Origin: a phage | DNA length: 64,000 bases | Assembly (NCBI GenBank): GCA_033286805.1 | Contig: GCA_033286805.1_4727.1 | Strand: one strand, 5' to 3' | Part shown: piece by piece, positions 11,774 to 34,705 of the stretch | How the letters are laid out: every line of letters begins with the position of its first letter | How positions within the stretch are numbered: position 1 is the stretch's first letter | The notes under the pieces: model-generated | Database searches by the model: none | Told to the model about the DNA's origin: nothing | The model's input: only the letters and a program-made list of their open reading frames with translations | Translations under genes and position numbers: made by a program

Positions 11774-14404
11774 TTACAATTCAAAATCTTCATCGATAAC
11801 ACGCTGGGTAAGCACTTTGTCGCTGAAGAACTCCACCTTGCGCTGATGGTATTTACGGTGCGCTTCGATAGAAGTACATACCAGATACCAGAACGTTGGC
11901 GTCATTCCTTCAAACTTCCCTTTCAGCTGACGCAGTCGTCCCAACACCTGAATGTTGCCGGTTCGTGACCCCATCGCTAACGTCATGAACGTCATCACCA
12001 AGTCAGGAAGGTCGATACCGGTACCTGCCGATTTCACGGTTGTAACGCTAATATCGTTATCCAGCAAGACCATGAAATCTTCTTCAGCAGTATAAGGACC
12101 GATCTCTAGCTCAGGAATACGTTCACTGAGATAATGCGACAACGACTTACACATATCAACGGTTGCACAATACACCAGCATCTTCATACCTTCCTGATAC
12201 TGGTTCATAAAACCTTTGATAATAACGGTATAGATGAAGTTAAAGTACGCGAGTTTGAGTTGCTTGTTCTTCATGATAGACTGTTCAAATATCGTGTGCG
12301 AATAAGCTCCACCAAACCCTTTGTATCTGACTTTATCTGTACTGCGTAGTCGATATGTTACCGCATTTACCGCAATGTATTTCTTGTATTCGCCTTTCGC
12401 ATAACGGGCTTCTTTCGGATACATCAAATACAGCATCTGTTCGATAAACGGATCATCGGATACCGCTGTTGCCGACAGATAAATGATTTCCGGAATATTG
12501 GCGTAACACTTGACCTTAAACAAGAAATGCAATGCTTCGTGACACTCGTCATGAATCAGCAAACCTATGCCGGTCTTTTCCCAAAACTCAGCGGGATGGA
12601 AGGCATATGGCGCAACGCAGTTATTCTTCTCGTAGTCCGCAATATAACGTTGGAACATGTTCAAGGAGAACAATGCGATTTTGAAGTCGAGTTCACCCTG
12701 TTCAACCAAGGTTTGAAACTCCAGCATGCTGTAACGAGGAATGTCGGGATGCGGTGGATCCTCCTTAGCGTTCCCGCGTATCTCGATAACATCCCCTGGT
12801 TCCATCCCGAAGAAGTTCAGCAGCGAGCTTCGCCAACCTGGCATATACCGTGGAGAAAGTATAATGCCTGTGCGCACACCCCGTCTAAACACGATTTCCT
12901 GCGACATCGCGGTGTTGTGTGTGACGATAAAGTCTTTCACCACAAACAACGCTGAAGGATCATCGATCGTAATGCAACGTGCATCCGCAACACGGGAAGG
13001 TTTGATTGACAGTACACGCAGCATACTTTCGAAGTATTGTCCGTCGACAGGACAACGTTCCAGCTTCTTCGGAAGTGTAACGATTTCATGTGGACGTTTA
13101 TACCGTATCGTAACCATGTACGCCAATCGTCCCTTATGTCTTTCCCCCTTGTAGGTGTAATACGGTTGTTTAATACGTAGACGAGCATATCCACCGATCG
13201 AACGAACCAAGTAGATAACGTCATCTGAAAGCTGTTTGCTCGAAGTACAGAAAACAATAGATCCGCCTTTATCTACCGTTCCGTCGGTATCGATAAGACC
13301 TGCAAGTATTTCGCAACGCTGTCTATGCGACGCCATCATGTACTGTTTCGGAACAAACTTCTCCCAGGCTCGTTTACCCATCAACCCCAACTGATCAAGC
13401 GCGGATGCTGTCTCCGACCGCCCACCGTAATTGATTAACGTTGCGGCAGGCGTCTTCGTTACCGCATAGTCGTATTTGTCACGGTACTGTATTTCACAGT
13501 CATCAGGAAGACGACTTAACACCTTATTCAAGATGAAATCGTCAGGAGTTGTAATGATTGGAGATGTCGTTAAATGACCGTCCCCTAACAGAACACCAAG
13601 CACGTACGGATCAAGCGGTAAATCTGCATCAGGAGTATCCTCAGACTCACAATACGGAATGTAAAGTCGTTTATTGGACAGCTCCAGGATACGAATCATC
13701 TCAAGTGTATTGATAACCCGCATGGGATAAGGATTGTTTTTGTCCCATCCCCAGTTAGGTCTCATGCACGCCCAGAGATGCTCGCCGCAGGCTTCAACAC
13801 GACGACCGTCAGCAAAGACAATCTCATAGAGCTGTTTTGCTTTATGGTCGAAGATATTGGTTACCTTCGTTGGTCGGCCATTAGCAGCCGTGATGGTATC
13901 ACCTAGCTTCAAATCGCCTAATTGACGCCATCCGCCAGGGACTTTTACGAGCGTGGTAAGCGGATTCGCTTTACCAGACCCCGTTTGAGCGGTGTTTAGG
14001 CTCATTCTGAAGGGGGTATCCTTACCCCCGTTCATGTACTCCAGCCATTCTTGTTGATCTTCACGCCACGGAAACTTCCATTTCTTTACGAACTCCACTT
14101 CCTTACCTGGTACCGGATCGTGATAAACGATTTCCAACCACTCTTTTCGGATTCCTCGAGAGAAGATAAAATCCAAAAACGATTTCAACTGTTCGCGGAG
14201 TAAGTATACCTCGCTATAATCGCTTCTCGCTGCGGCGTAGGTGTTAATGGTATCGGTGACCATTCTCCGTGTACGAGGGTCGCGTCGTTTCCGTAGATGC
14301 AAACAACGGTCTCGAAGGTAATGGCCAATCAAATGGGCAAATCGAAGTCCGTATCCGCTCAGCCTCATGCCATGCGAGAAGACGTCGATACGAGCTAACT
14401 TCAT
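11774..14404 (-). CDS. SF2 DEAH-type helicase interrupted by an intein (876-aa precursor; mature helicase about 524 aa)
   Basis: Extein halves TGSGK / T reconstitute a P-loop GSGKT after removing residues 146-497; downstream DECH box and SAT motif; ATGA overlap with upstream RNAP gene. Confidence 0.75.
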   Translation of the reverse strand: MKLARIDVFSHGMRLSGYGLRFAHLIGHYLRDRCLHLRKRRDPRTRRMVTDTINTYAAARSDYSEVYLLREQLKSFLDFIFSRGIRKEWLEIVYHDPVPGKEVEFVKKWKFPWREDQQEWLEYMNGGKDTPFRMSLNTAQTGSGKANPLTTLVKVPGGWRQLGDLKLGDTITAANGRPTKVTNIFDHKAKQLYEIVFADGRRVEACGEHLWACMRPNWGWDKNNPYPMRVINTLEMIRILELSNKRLYIPYCESEDTPDADLPLDPYVLGVLLGDGHLTTSPIITTPDDFILNKVLSRLPDDCEIQYRDKYDYAVTKTPAATLINYGGRSETASALDQLGLMGKRAWEKFVPKQYMMASHRQRCEILAGLIDTDGTVDKGGSIVFCTSSKQLSDDVIYLVRSIGGYARLRIKQPYYTYKGERHKGRLAYMVTIRYKRPHEIVTLPKKLERCPVDGQYFESMLRVLSIKPSRVADARCITIDDPSALFVVKDFIVTHNTAMSQEIVFRRGVRTGIILSPRYMPGWRSSLLNFFGMEPGDVIEIRGNAKEDPPHPDIPRYSMLEFQTLVEQGELDFKIALFSLNMFQRYIADYEKNNCVAPYAFHPAEFWEKTGIGLLIHDECHEALHFLFKVKCYANIPEIIYLSATAVSDDPFIEQMLYLMYPKEARYAKGEYKKYIAVNAVTYRLRSTDKVRYKGFGGAYSHTIFEQSIMKNKQLKLAYFNFIYTVIIKGFMNQYQEGMKMLVYCATVDMCKSLSHYLSERIPELEIGPYTAEEDFMVLLDNDISVTTVKSAGTGIDLPDLVMTFMTLAMGSRTGNIQVLGRLRQLKGKFEGMTPTFWYLVCTSIEAHRKYHQRKVEFFSDKVLTQRVIDEDFEL
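12914..13969 (-). mobile_element. intein (352 aa) with LAGLIDADG homing endonuclease; class-3-like (Ala1, WCT triad)
   Basis: Hint block A-like N-terminus TLVKVPGG...GD...NGRP; two LAGLIDADG motifs (LGVLLGDGHL, ILAGLIDTDG); C-terminal FIVTHN followed by Thr+1; residue 1 is Ala; Trp in GEHLW, Cys in ARCITIDD and Thr before HN fit the class-3 WCT pattern. Confidence 0.65.
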
Positions 14405-16407
14405 AACGTGATTACATCCTCCGGTTTAGGTTCTTTACGCGGTAAAAGCATGTAGTCGATCGGATGATCCGGCTTCATGGTTGGGATATAACTGTTCGGG
14501 TTTTGGAACGCATCCAGTTGCTCTTGGTGAGCGAACTTCATACTCAAGGAGCGCATGTTCATGTTCTTCTTGAAGGTACTGAAGTATCGTGTTGTTCCCT
14601 GTTTCGGCATGCGATAATCTTTCGTGTGTGGCGAACGAATCATGCTGGCGTAGAGAATAACGTCGAGATGCGAAAGGTTCATTCGCAGACGCTGGGCACA
14701 CAGGCGATGCCAATAATACAGCACGTTTGCAACTTCTTCCGGTGTTGCTTCGTCTTCCGAGAGGAATCCGGCACTGAAAGAACCTTTCCCGAATTTGAAC
14801 TCACGTTCGATTTCTTTTGCGTATTCCATCATGTTTTTGTGGATTAACGGCATCTGGAATAACGTACGTGAATTGTCCCAATGTTTCAAGTCGAAAATCA
14901 CAATCCCGTCAGACGTCACTTCCCAGCTATGGCGTTTAAGATAACGGATAAACGCTTTACTCGGGACGACGGGACGTCCACAGAAATCGAAATTGACTTT
15001 GAGCTTACGATAGCTTTCATCTTTCCTGTCGTAAATCTCCATATCACAAAGCGTCATGTTAAACAGACGTTGCGGTATCAGCGAACTGATTTCTTCCGCT
15101 TCGGCTACATCGTACAACATGTTCGCAAGACCTAACTTCATCTTAATCAGCACGTGTTTACCTTTCAGCTCACGTGCGAGTTTGATGTCGTTCATGTTCT
15201 GGCTGTAGCGAAGGATATGTTGATATTCCGGCGGGATTGGTGCTGTGGATACCGTTGACGAACCATCGTGGTGTTTGGTGGAAAGAATGTTCTGCGTTAC
15301 CTGTTGCGAACAGGTACGCGCTGCGCCATCGCCAACATTATCGGTTAGTGCGAAGTTATGACTTAATTCACCATAACACGTTGTACATACCCCAGCAGGA
15401 TCGGGATGATGACAATAGTTAACGGAGCGCATGCGTACCGTCGTGCCGATCAATTCTTTCATGTGTGGTTGTATAGCTACCAACGAACCGTCATCACGAA
15501 TAATGAATCGACCATGGAAGCCACGCAGGTCGGTCTCATCGCGGATTGGCATCGGGATGGTCTCTTTACTACCACAATCACCAGGATGAAGTCGTTGTAC
15601 AACCGCTGTCGCTATCTGAAGTTCACGACCGAAATATTCAGACTTTTTAATCTGCTCTTTGTTGAACAGCAACGATTTCGCCGCAGAACGACTTTCTTTC
15701 AAGCTGTCGGGAAGAGAGATCAAACCAGCTGCGTATGACCGCATTACTGGATCACGGAATATCTCGGAGTTAATATCAGTCAAGAATCCACGCATCCCAA
15801 TACACTGTAGCACCTGCCCAATCGAAACGTGTTCGGTTCTTACCGCACGTGCAATAGGGTTTGCATGTAACGTTTTATCGGTGCTCAGTACCTTCGTCAG
15901 TTTCTTGTATGCGCTTTCGATACCTTCGCGGGTGGGTTCCGCTTCAGCGATGATTTTCTTAACTTCAGGGTGTACAGTAATCTGATAAAAATCATCCGCA
16001 CAAATAGTTGTTACGTATTCCTCCAACGCATACGTAAAGAAGTTATACACATTGTTAAACATATCGAACAATGCTTTCCAGAGAACCTCGCGATTCTCTT
16101 GTGGGTAAGCATACATACATTGACGATACGCTGCGCTTTGCAACGCAACCGACGAACCAGCAGTAAACTTGCGTTTATCGACCAGGTTCTCTTTTGTCAA
16201 CGGTGTCTCAGGATACATGCGATGCACAGACCAATGCATGTAACTAAAGAAAATGCGTCGCGCACGTAATTCATGAACGCCATCGTCCATCTCGATATAT
16301 ACACGGTCATTAGGCTGTGCCCATTCGAACACCTCATCAACCGGCCAGTGCATAAGCTCGCGTGCCCTCACACGACGTTTCGTGGTGGTCGTCTGTGTTG
16401 TATTCAT
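14401..16407 (-). CDS. multisubunit RNA polymerase beta' subunit, C-terminal fragment (668 aa)
   Basis: AGVCTTCYG matches the beta' GVCAHCYG zinc-binding segment; SQQVTQNILSTKHHDGSS resembles the trigger-loop GTQLTMRTFHIGGA. Confidence 0.65.
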   Translation of the reverse strand: MNTTQTTTTKRRVRARELMHWPVDEVFEWAQPNDRVYIEMDDGVHELRARRIFFSYMHWSVHRMYPETPLTKENLVDKRKFTAGSSVALQSAAYRQCMYAYPQENREVLWKALFDMFNNVYNFFTYALEEYVTTICADDFYQITVHPEVKKIIAEAEPTREGIESAYKKLTKVLSTDKTLHANPIARAVRTEHVSIGQVLQCIGMRGFLTDINSEIFRDPVMRSYAAGLISLPDSLKESRSAAKSLLFNKEQIKKSEYFGRELQIATAVVQRLHPGDCGSKETIPMPIRDETDLRGFHGRFIIRDDGSLVAIQPHMKELIGTTVRMRSVNYCHHPDPAGVCTTCYGELSHNFALTDNVGDGAARTCSQQVTQNILSTKHHDGSSTVSTAPIPPEYQHILRYSQNMNDIKLARELKGKHVLIKMKLGLANMLYDVAEAEEISSLIPQRLFNMTLCDMEIYDRKDESYRKLKVNFDFCGRPVVPSKAFIRYLKRHSWEVTSDGIVIFDLKHWDNSRTLFQMPLIHKNMMEYAKEIEREFKFGKGSFSAGFLSEDEATPEEVANVLYYWHRLCAQRLRMNLSHLDVILYASMIRSPHTKDYRMPKQGTTRYFSTFKKNMNMRSLSMKFAHQEQLDAFQNPNSYIPTMKPDHPIDYMLLPRKEPKPEDVITL

Positions 16408-32749: not shown

Positions 32750-33122
32750 GCTACTTCGTATCCGCAGCATTACCTGCAGCTCCTGGTGTTACCAGGATGT
32801 TGAGAGTATATCATGTCCATATTCCAAATGGAACGTAGGACTTCCGCGCTGGATCTCGCTTGAGACCGCTTACTCGTTGAACGTTCTCCTAAACGGAGCT
32901 TCGCTGCTGATTGGACATTGTTACGTACGGTAGGCGTCCCATTAAAGGGATTTTCATTGAAGCCGCGTACATCCGTTACCTTGTTTCTACCTTATCGGTT
33001 CCTCTTACGAGGCGTAACGGCTTTAGCCTATTCCAGCAATTCACGGAATGCATATTCTCCTTTTCAGGAGATAAGGCCATGGCTCTGGCATCACCGTCAA
33101 AGTCCACGTATCTTCAGTATGG
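32750..33122. repeat. structured element A (about 373 nt), unit 1 of a diverged tandem pair
   Basis: Shares collinear conserved blocks with unit B (ccgcagcattacctgcagctcctggtgttaccagga, gctgctgattg, ccttatcgg, ggctttagcc, cagcaattcacggaat); no ORF above 61 aa. Confidence 0.6.
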
Positions 33123-33480
33123 TTCGCTACTCCATACCCGCAGCATTACCTGCAGCTCCTGGTGTTACCAGGACGGAGAGATCATCTCATCACCCACGAA
33201 GGGTGTTCCGCGCTACCCTCAGCGAATTCGAGGGACATGATCGTTGAACCTTCCACCGATAATCGGCGGCTAGGCTGCTGATTGAACATTGTACGTTGGG
33301 GTGGCATCCTGGTGCAGGACTGTCGTTGAAGCCTCCCAACATCCACTCACTTATTTCCGCCTTATCGGCTCCCACAAGGGCAGAGTGGCTTTAGCCCGTC
33401 TCAGCAATTCACGGAATTCAAGCTCTTCCTTTCGGAAGGCAGGGCCTCATTTGAAGCGTTGTATCCCTTAAGGATCATCA
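33123..33480. repeat. structured element B (about 358 nt), unit 2 of the tandem pair; overlaps last ~26 codons of the beta' N gene
   Basis: Collinear with unit A; stems differ by compensatory changes (aggc/gcct vs gggc/gccc; tctcc/ggaga vs cttcc/ggaag). Confidence 0.6.
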
Positions 33481-34705
33481 CGCTTAACCCGATGGTGTTA
33501 TCCTGCGGATCGCGTTTAACCTTGGTGATTTCAAGACATTGGTTACTGCTTCGGTCAAGTGATGGGTTTCGAACAAAGCCGCACACAATCCCATCGAACG
33601 GTGTATCAGCAATAAGCTCATCGTGCAGCTCGCTCATCATCGGATGATAATTACGGACATGTTCCGCAACGAACGCACGTGCCGCTCTTGGCGAATAACC
33701 ACGATGGAATAACTTGGATTGGATATGTTCTTTATTGGTTAAAGTAAATGGTGCGTATGGGAAATGCAGATGATAATAACGATGGTTCGCTGTTATCGAA
33801 CTGATTACAGTACGCGTGGTGAATGGATGTAATGTACCTAATATGTTTTTACGTGTGATACCTTTCTTCTTACCGATGAACTCATCGAAAATTGCTGCGT
33901 GGTATTGCAGTAGCTTCAGTTGTACTTTCGCCATCCAGTTTTCTTTCTTTCTGGCGCTCAAAGGTGTTGTTGGGTGATAGATACTATTCAACGTACCGAT
34001 AGCATCGATCGCACCTTCCATTTTGCTATCTGCATAACGACCGGTCGGCGTATTTTCGATAACGAACATCATGGCCGCAGGAAAGCTGATATACTGACTG
34101 AAGAACTTATCACGATGGATACGGATGAATTCTCGTAGCGTGTCAACTTTCTCCGTGTTCTTCGGTCCACGTAACGTGGGTCCTTTATACAAGATCTCCA
34201 TGATACGATCGAAGTTCTGTATAAAGCTATTTACGCCACGTCGTATCCCGAATGCATCAAATTGCTGCTCTAGATAGTTCTTGAGTTCAATGGGTCGTTT
34301 TACATTTGGACGGTAACTGGCATCAATGAGCCACGTCATCGTTTCAAAGCTTTTGATATTCAACTCGCTTGCCAGCACGAGATGGACCAACGGGTTAATG
34401 AACGCATCGATTCCTTCAGGGACACGCGCCCAGACCGTCGAACGAATCTCTTGTTCTGCTGGGTAGGTTACAACCGTTTTACAGTTTGGACACACCGTGC
34501 CGAGTAGCTCACCACGATTGTAGAAACCACAACCACATTGTGGTGTGATATCCAACGTATCGCTGGAGTAAACACGGGTGATAAAACTGTTTAATTTCTT
34601 CTTCTCTTCGACGACTTTTGTATCGTAATCATTCAACAAAATCGGCGTAAAAGGAAGTTCTGCGAGCTGTCTATCGAAACTCACGATATCGAGCATGATG
34701 GCCAT
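33401..34705 (-). CDS. multisubunit RNA polymerase beta' subunit, N-terminal fragment (434 aa)
   Basis: CGCGFY...CPNCKTVV matches the beta' N-terminal zinc finger; GTLHPFTTRTVISS resembles GKRVDYSGRSVITV; EHVRNYHPMM...IVCGFV resembles EVIREHPVLL...LVCAAY; ORF ends where NADFDGD would follow. Confidence 0.65.
   Translation of the reverse strand: MAIMLDIVSFDRQLAELPFTPILLNDYDTKVVEEKKKLNSFITRVYSSDTLDITPQCGCGFYNRGELLGTVCPNCKTVVTYPAEQEIRSTVWARVPEGIDAFINPLVHLVLASELNIKSFETMTWLIDASYRPNVKRPIELKNYLEQQFDAFGIRRGVNSFIQNFDRIMEILYKGPTLRGPKNTEKVDTLREFIRIHRDKFFSQYISFPAAMMFVIENTPTGRYADSKMEGAIDAIGTLNSIYHPTTPLSARKKENWMAKVQLKLLQYHAAIFDEFIGKKKGITRKNILGTLHPFTTRTVISSITANHRYYHLHFPYAPFTLTNKEHIQSKLFHRGYSPRAARAFVAEHVRNYHPMMSELHDELIADTPFDGIVCGFVRNPSLDRSSNQCLEITKVKRDPQDNTIGLSVMILKGYNASNEALPSERKSLNSVNC

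Follow-up and report, generated by a model that had tools for sequence, protein, structure and literature searches.

Class 3 inteins were defined from cases in phages and in the P-loops of helicases (PMC2807308). The prototype is the DnaB intein of mycobacteriophage Bethlehem, and structures have been solved for M. chimaera DnaB1 (MchDnaB1; 6RIX/6RIY) and M. smegmatis DnaBi1 (Msm DnaBi1; 6BS8). These inteins have a non-nucleophilic first residue, Trp at position 12 of block B (B12), Cys at position 4 of block F (F4) and Thr at position 5 of block G (G5), which together form the W-C-T triplet, a terminal THN followed by Thr at position +1 of the C-extein, and a helicase-type P-loop as insertion site (PMC2807308). 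In MchDnaB1 the catalytic triad is Cys124/His65/Thr143, joined by Trp67 (PMC7664689), and the position between Lys and Thr has been called a "classic" P-loop intein site (PMC5050341). Here we describe an element that shares all of these features and that lies in a 64,000-nucleotide stretch of phage DNA (contig GCA_033286805.1_4727.1 of GenBank assembly GCA_033286805.1; hereafter the window). We put at roughly 85% the probability that it is a functional intein of class 3 whose LAGLIDADG homing endonuclease is intact, and that it interrupts Walker A of a superfamily 2 (SF2) helicase between the Lys and the Thr. Unlike the solved class 3 mini-intein constructs it is full-length and includes a LAGLIDADG domain, and unlike the DnaB hosts of class 3 inteins its host appears to be an XPB/UvsW-like SF2 helicase of a nucleus-forming jumbo phage. 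It also differs from the class 3 prototypes in having Cys at position 7 of block B (B7).

The limits of the insert were set by comparison with Escherichia phage vB_EcoM_Goslar (NC_048170), with which the window is collinear (Goslar positions 136172-200203) at 96-97% nucleotide identity. The Goslar orthologue of the interrupted gene, gp164 (524 aa), is annotated "DNA helicase" and lies directly downstream of the RNA polymerase beta-subunit gene. In the window an RNA polymerase beta-subunit gene (14401..16407) lies upstream, and its stop overlaps the start of the precursor open reading frame (ORF). Alignment of the precursor to gp164 gave one gap, exactly residues 146-497, where Goslar reads GTGSGK directly followed by TAMSQ, and the exteins were 97.5-98% identical to the Goslar protein. 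The insert is in frame between the Lys and the Thr of Walker A, its DNA limits (12914..13969) were checked by translation, and taking it out gives GSGKTAMSQ. The empty allele at the insertion point in Goslar is GGGTCTGGTAAA followed by ACAGCCATGTCG, and the surrounding gp164 site may also be written as ...GGGTCTGGTAAA followed by ACAGCCATGTCGCAGGAGATCACC.... A preliminary description of this locus, made from the letters alone, had placed an insert at these same residues in the P-loop and had stated that its removal restores GSGKT, with DECH and SAT helicase motifs downstream; both statements were borne out, the first by the exact gap against the 98%-identical Goslar protein and the second by translation. 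From their sequences the precursor should have a mass of 101.1 kDa, and splicing should yield a helicase of 61.2 kDa and an intein of 39.9 kDa. A tblastn search of the whole 64-kb window with the intein found no second copy. The GC content of the insert (0.45-0.51) lies inside the range of its surroundings (0.39-0.54), and it therefore gives no sign of recent foreign origin.

The intein was compared with solved structures from the Protein Data Bank (PDB) using phmmer. Class 3 inteins were the top matches (MchDnaB1 6RIX/6RIY, E 3.5e-9; Msm DnaBi1 6BS8, E 1.7e-7), followed by gp41-1, which belongs to class 1 and also has Thr at G5 (PMC7664689). In the HMMER alignment His64, Trp66, Cys332 and Thr350 of the insert fell on His65, Trp67, Cys124 and Thr143 of MchDnaB1; the alignment to the solved inteins covers the ends only, with about 64 N-terminal residues and a weak match of about 27-32 C-terminal residues. 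The surroundings of the block F Cys, with Ile directly after it, Asp at +4 and an aromatic residue at +10, fit the published class definition (PMC2807308). The elements named in the preliminary description, namely a Hint-type N-terminus starting with Ala, two LAGLIDADG motifs, Trp in GEHLW, Cys in ARCITIDD and Thr before the terminal HN, with Thr after it, were all found where it had put them, the triplet at B12, F4 and G5. Its assignment to class 3 is likewise supported, both by the residue-by-residue match to MchDnaB1 and Msm DnaBi1 and by covariation across the family.

Covariation was assessed among relatives of the intein. A search of a large protein collection gave 78 relatives, and the family alignment had 79 rows (the query and these relatives). 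The block B His was present in 73 of the 79 rows, Trp at B12 in 62 and the C-terminal Asn in 66, with Thr or Ser at +1 also in 66; the block F Cys was present in 62 of the 71 ungapped rows. The 55 relatives in which both junctions were aligned were used for the covariation counts, and in 39 of these the insertion follows GK. A non-nucleophilic residue 1, mostly Ala, was combined with (W/F/Y)-C-T in 46 of the 55. Four had Cys1 without the triplet, with Leu or Ile at B12 and Gly at F4, two had a nucleophile at residue 1 together with the triplet, and three were poorly aligned exceptions. At the level of sequence, this covariation of the triplet with residue 1 reproduces what defines class 3. The exteins of the 78 relatives were varied and mostly P-loop nucleoside triphosphatases (PhoH, ClpX-type AAA, ResIII/DEAD/SNF2 helicases, terminase, DnaB and thymidine kinase), and some of the remaining hosts were other nucleic-acid and nucleotide enzymes. 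A tblastn search with the intein found homologues in 872 of 50,697 phage records (E down to 5e-86), which by the first word of the organism name were Mycobacterium (300), Salmonella (185), Vibrio (68) and others; the top identity was just 44%, in jumbo-phage helicase and terminase genes. The preliminary description had called class 3 inteins uncommon. This needs softening. Most inteins do belong to other classes, but the sites from which class 3 was first described are the P-loop and ATPases of helicase type (PMC2807308), and homologues of the present intein occur in the 872 phage records given above. The intein of the window is thus correct as called but ordinary, a further case of an already known family.

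Inteins of close resemblance occur in jumbo phages outside the Goslar group. Erwinia phage Rebecca gp251, E. coli phage EC001 gp39 (SPN3US group) and Xanthomonas phage RTH11 have an intein at the identical site of the orthologous helicase (GxGK before the intein, T after it), and PhiPA3 gp233, a different helicase, carries one too. All four resemble the window intein in architecture and in their CGEHLW, CI and FIVTHN-T blocks. The orthologous helicase keeps its gene order in related jumbo phages, and the RNA polymerase beta-subunit gene is again upstream in Rebecca and EC001. Residue 1 is Ala in two of the three inteins at the orthologous site; EC001 has Cys1, yet the W-C-T triplet is kept. 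Intein identity to the window was 42-45% in all four, whereas extein identity ranged from 15% to 38%. Because intein identity does not track extein identity, these comparisons suggest horizontal movement between P-loop sites rather than pure vertical descent. The P-loop inteins of mycobacteriophage terminases (TerL1-a, PMC5050341) are also phage-borne and have LAGLIDADG endonucleases; they differ from the window intein in extein family and phage lineage.

The fold of the insert was modelled with AlphaFold2 from 79 sequences (mean predicted local distance difference test score 95.7, predicted template modelling score 0.93). Foldseek searches with the whole model matched the inteins TliVMA, PI-SceI and PI-PfuI (E 5.5e-18 to 7.6e-13; PI-SceI, E 6e-18) with template modelling (TM) scores up to 0.75. 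The splicing domain matched MchDnaB1 (target TM 0.77-0.81) and the endonuclease domain matched I-DmoI (E 1e-5). As modelled, the insert has the HINT fold. PI-SceI, PI-PfuI and TliVMA have the two-domain fold in common with the window intein but are class 1 inteins that use Cys1 as nucleophile, and their sequence identity to it is 13-17%. The preliminary description had proposed alignment to Hint and LAGLIDADG models. Pfam LAGLIDADG_3 was above its cutoff (30.3 bits, cutoff 22.5), as was Hom_end (22.9 bits, cutoff 21.1). Taken with the phmmer, tblastn and Foldseek results, the match lies far outside what chance would give. The family-conserved K204-x-x-P207 is present in the window intein. The intein carries a predicted LAGLIDADG homing endonuclease of the two-motif monomer type.

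A splicing route can be proposed on the model of known class 3 inteins (PMC2807308, PMC7664689). The 101-kDa precursor would be unable to bind ATP properly, with GSGK and T 352 residues apart, and the helicase would be inactive until spliced because its Walker A motif is split. Cys332, activated by His64 with Trp66 and Thr350, would attack the Lys145-Ala146 peptide bond and form an internal thioester branch. Transesterification would then pass the N-extein to Thr+1, cyclisation of Asn352 would free the 40-kDa intein, and an O-to-N shift would leave a 61-kDa helicase with GSGKTAMSQ. The freed intein or the precursor would cut an empty allele, and during co-infection repair from intein-bearing genomes would copy the element in. 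We infer the Cys332 branch from the signature; that the intein splices, and by this sequence of steps, is read from signature, fold and conservation, and DNA cleavage is a prediction. Cys61 (B7) could pair with Cys332 and make splicing redox-dependent, as is reported of mycobacterial DnaBi1, a weaker additional idea. Cys at B7 occurs in the window intein and in 33 of the 78 relatives, including the four aligned jumbo-phage inteins. The Bethlehem prototype has Ser at this position.

To place the intein among Goslar-like phages we compared the alleles of the helicase site. The exact 876-aa precursor is in a public protein collection, where it falls in a 90%-identity cluster of 66 sequences. Among the 876-aa members listed for this cluster, several are on contigs about 234-241 kb long; those with a name derive from assemblies of Salmonella and E. 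coli. Three alleles were found, an empty site (cluster of 140 members), a 229-aa intein within a 753-aa precursor (158 members, the largest 90%-identity cluster at this site) and the 352-aa intein. The 229-aa intein is also class 3, with A1, CGDHLW, ARCITVD and IVTHN followed by T, and its top PDB match was 6BS8 (E 3.8e-11). It has no recognisable endonuclease domain, and its middle segment of about 95 aa had no Pfam match. Over the splicing segments only, it is 61% (N-terminal) and 53% (C-terminal) identical to the window intein. The N-terminal junction (window 13949-13981 (-), and the same positions in the Goslar-like contigs L008-L015) is hypervariable among phages that are otherwise 95-98% identical. 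The codons for GSGK show synonymous differences, all four of them, in nearly all genomes of this set, and the first seven intein residues across alleles are ANPLTTL, ANPHTTL, SLINSTP, AIPLNTP, AIPLTTP or ALALHTP.

The flanks of the insertion site were also compared at the nucleotide level. Divergence from Goslar was about 3 differences per 100 nt over the surrounding 9.5 kb and 12-29 per 100 nt, mostly synonymous, in a block of roughly 20% divergence and 0.45 kb, whose edges lie some 40 nt upstream and some 450 nt downstream of where the intein is inserted. Among 10 genomes this block falls into two deep haplotypes. The association of intein state with haplotype was strong but not absolute, as L015 and P0112 combine the Goslar-type block with the 229-aa intein, and an empty site was found next to the window-type block in P0095, P0098 and P0104-P0108. 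We considered the block as a co-conversion tract left by the arrival of the intein, and this idea was weakened by the occurrence of both haplotypes with empty and occupied sites. Because of this mixing the block cannot date the arrival; on the genomes compared it is a recombining polymorphism anchored at the intein site rather than a dated footprint. The codon at +8, which is GTG (Val) or ACC (Thr), follows the intein state more tightly. Of 29 variants with an intein 24 have Val, as against none of the 15 that are empty, an association that is indicative only, as the variants are phylogenetically non-independent.

Some points weigh against a functional class 3 intein at this site. The Pfam Intein_splicing model scored 14.8 bits on the insert (cutoff 35.8); being sub-threshold, this match was not counted as evidence, and the HINT assignment therefore rests on the PDB sequence matches and the predicted fold. 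Grafting of W-C-T onto the class 1 gp41-1 intein gave no productive splicing (PMC7664689), and the triplet alone is therefore no proof of the class 3 mechanism. Lastly, linkage between the flanking block and the intein is incomplete, since either haplotype can have an empty or an occupied site. The alternative that survives best, unlikely but credible, is an intein that splices and is no longer mobile, its endonuclease inactive or kept for folding, so that the element is a vertical passenger. The change D130G in the first LAGLIDADG motif of one of 14 variants of the 352-aa lineage would fit this, as would the greater size of the cluster of the endonuclease-less 229-aa sister allele (158 versus 66 member sequences). 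However, both catalytic aspartates and the conserved Lys204 are present in the window, and the three alleles are found side by side with flanks of mixed haplotype, implying ongoing exchange at the site. Between the window and L010 the ratio of nonsynonymous to synonymous substitution rates (dN/dS) was 0.059 for the whole intein, 0.049 for the HINT part and 0.063 for the endonuclease part. Because dN/dS is similarly low in both domains, splicing and endonuclease functions both appear to be maintained in the 352-aa lineage.

The variation at residue 1 bears on whether the element splices by another route, which could be class 2 (KlbA-like, with Thr+1 attacking the N-terminal junction) or, in variants that begin with Ser, class 1, with Cys332 having a structural role. 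Among the 14 variants the first seven residues were ANPLTTL in 10 (Ala1) and SLINSTP in four (Ser1). Ala1 is found in class 2 inteins too, and the Ser1 variants, the Cys1 of EC001 and the insufficiency of the grafted triplet for class 3 chemistry all lean towards a different route. Against it, class 2 inteins are by definition without W-C-T (PMC2807308), and His64, Trp66, Lys204, Asp229, Cys332, Thr350, His351 and Asn352 were invariant in all 14 variants. A residue 1 that varies while W-C-T stays fixed is the expectation if residue 1 is not the nucleophile, as in class 3, and three W-C-T inteins with Ser or Cys as first residue are listed in the class definition itself (PMC2807308). The class 3 inteins also came ahead of gp41-1 among solved matches, and we judge another route to be improbable. 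A non-splicing insert, either a permanently fused endonuclease domain or a decayed intein, with the helicase dead or able to function despite the insert, would agree with the sub-threshold Intein_splicing score but is very improbable, as Walker A is split and exactly restored on removal, the splice-junction residues are all conserved and under purifying selection, and the helicase and its gene order are kept in related jumbo phages, three of them with an intein at the same site.

Table 1. Features of the intein-bearing helicase gene and of the other loci compared; positions are those of the window unless a contig is named.
Feature	Position	Strand	Basis
Precursor ORF, 876 aa, SF2 helicase interrupted by intein	11774..14404	(-)	ORF translation
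N-extein, aa 1-145, ends in first half of Walker A, GSGK (13970-13981)	13970..14404	(-)	
C-extein, aa 498-876 and stop codon; Thr+1 (12911-12913) completes Walker A GSGKT	11774..12913	(-)	
Intein, 352 aa (39.9 kDa), predicted HINT splicing domain split by LAGLIDADG endonuclease domain	12914..13969	(-)	Gap versus Goslar gp164
First intein residue Ala1 (Ala146 of precursor)		(-)	Gap versus Goslar gp164
Cys61, block B position 7 (B7)	13787-13789	(-)	
Block B GEHLW: His64 (B10, 13778-13780), Trp66 (B12, 13772-13774)	13772..13786	(-)	MchDnaB1 alignment
First LAGLIDADG motif, YVLGVLLGDG, predicted catalytic Asp130	13577..13606	(-)	G129-D130-G131 nearly invariant in family
Second LAGLIDADG motif, ILAGLIDTDG, predicted catalytic Asp229	13280..13309	(-)	D227, D229 and G230 nearly invariant in family
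Block F ARCITIDD; Cys332 (F4, 12974-12976), predicted initiating nucleophile	12959..12982	(-)	Aligned to Cys124 of MchDnaB1
End of block G, THN: Thr350 (G5), His351, Asn352	12914..12922	(-)	
Thr+1 (Thr498 of precursor), follows THN	12911-12913	(-)	
DECH helicase motif in C-extein	12539-12550	(-)	
SAT helicase motif in C-extein	12467-12475	(-)	
Divergent extein haplotype block	12457..12913, upstream edge to about 14012	(-)	Nucleotide comparison versus Goslar
229-aa intein	L008:3436-4122 (IMGVR_UViG_3300011560_000001); also in L011, L012, L013, L015		
Two tandem ORF-less group-I-intron-like elements	32782-33102 and 33158-33465	(-)	Full-length Rfam RF00028, 28 and 26 bits (cutoff 50)

The host of the intein was assessed from the extein and from the rest of the window. 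The extein matched PHROG 16, "DNA helicase" (E 6.4e-26). Pfam ResIII, DEAD and Helicase_C were all below cutoff, the extein being too divergent, and NCBIfam XPB scored 28.7 bits against a cutoff of 610; the Walker A, DExH and SAT motifs are present. The Goslar record for the collinear stretch annotates a nuclear shell protein and the tubulin PhuZ, and judged from this collinearity the phage of the window is a Goslar-like nucleus-forming jumbo phage of E. coli/Salmonella. In the phage collection Goslar was the sole match to the gene as DNA, and megablast found no relatives in complete (RefSeq) E. coli genomes or PLSDB plasmids. Goslar-like genomes of about 234-259 kb recurred among the contigs of assemblies made from isolates under the names Salmonella enterica and E. 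coli, which suggests that the cultures carry or are contaminated by Goslar-like lytic jumbo phages.

Besides the intein, the 64 kb contain just one large difference from Goslar, at 32782-33465 (-), beside an ORF at 33401..34705 (-). There, where the gene of an RNA polymerase subunit (gp247) has its 3' end, Goslar has 1,466 nt extra, annotated as a group I intron and the HNH endonuclease gp186. The window is without this HNH gene and its adjacent group I intron. It has two tandem intron-like elements with about 71% mutual identity, a similarity that takes in some 55 nt of duplicated 3' flank. In Goslar the terminal hairpin of the downstream element has undergone a compensatory change, from CCTGG..CCAGG to CCGG..CCGG. 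The difference between the two phages is therefore reciprocal, the window having the intein and no HNH gene or adjacent intron and Goslar having the HNH gene and intron and no intein.

In nucleus-forming phages translation is cytoplasmic and the phage DNA is sealed within a protein shell. An intein endonuclease would therefore have to enter the phage nucleus to home or to attack a rival genome. It may enter on its helicase host, with splicing inside, or by an import signal of its own, and act as a weapon against empty-allele Goslar-like phages that infect the same cell, a proposal that we regard as doubtful. If it is true, the three alleles, the junction-linked haplotype block and the reciprocal content of mobile elements would be traces of phage warfare. 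A described case of this kind is PhiPA3 gp210, an intron-encoded homing endonuclease that acts in competition between nucleus-forming phages (PMC11620839, PMC12908238). Like the window intein, it is a homing endonuclease inside an essential chimallivirus gene with an empty allele in close relatives; it differs in that its element is an intron, which interrupts the gene for an RNA polymerase subunit and is taken out of the RNA, whereas that of the window would be taken out of the protein. The tie of the intein to such endonuclease-mediated competition is a lead and not a result. Our search of the chimallivirus literature found no mention of inteins, the word "intein" is absent from the 2025 Annual Review on nucleus-forming phages, and two jumbo-phage reviews touch on inteins in passing only, through a non-chimallivirus example.

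Taken singly, these findings chiefly correct the annotation of the gene, as the public entries examined call the precursor "hypothetical protein" or "LAGLIDADG family homing endonuclease", and the Rebecca, EC001 and RTH11 orthologues are annotated as plain helicases with the intein unmentioned. They add a full-length class 3 intein, predicted to be active, from an E. coli/Salmonella phage. Of more use is the set that nature provides in nearly identical genomes, where a single site may be empty, may hold a short class 3 intein that lacks a recognisable endonuclease, or may hold the full class 3 intein with Ala1 or Ser1. This series could be used to probe the homing cycle, the role of residue 1 in class 3 splicing and the access of an endonuclease to DNA in the phage nucleus.

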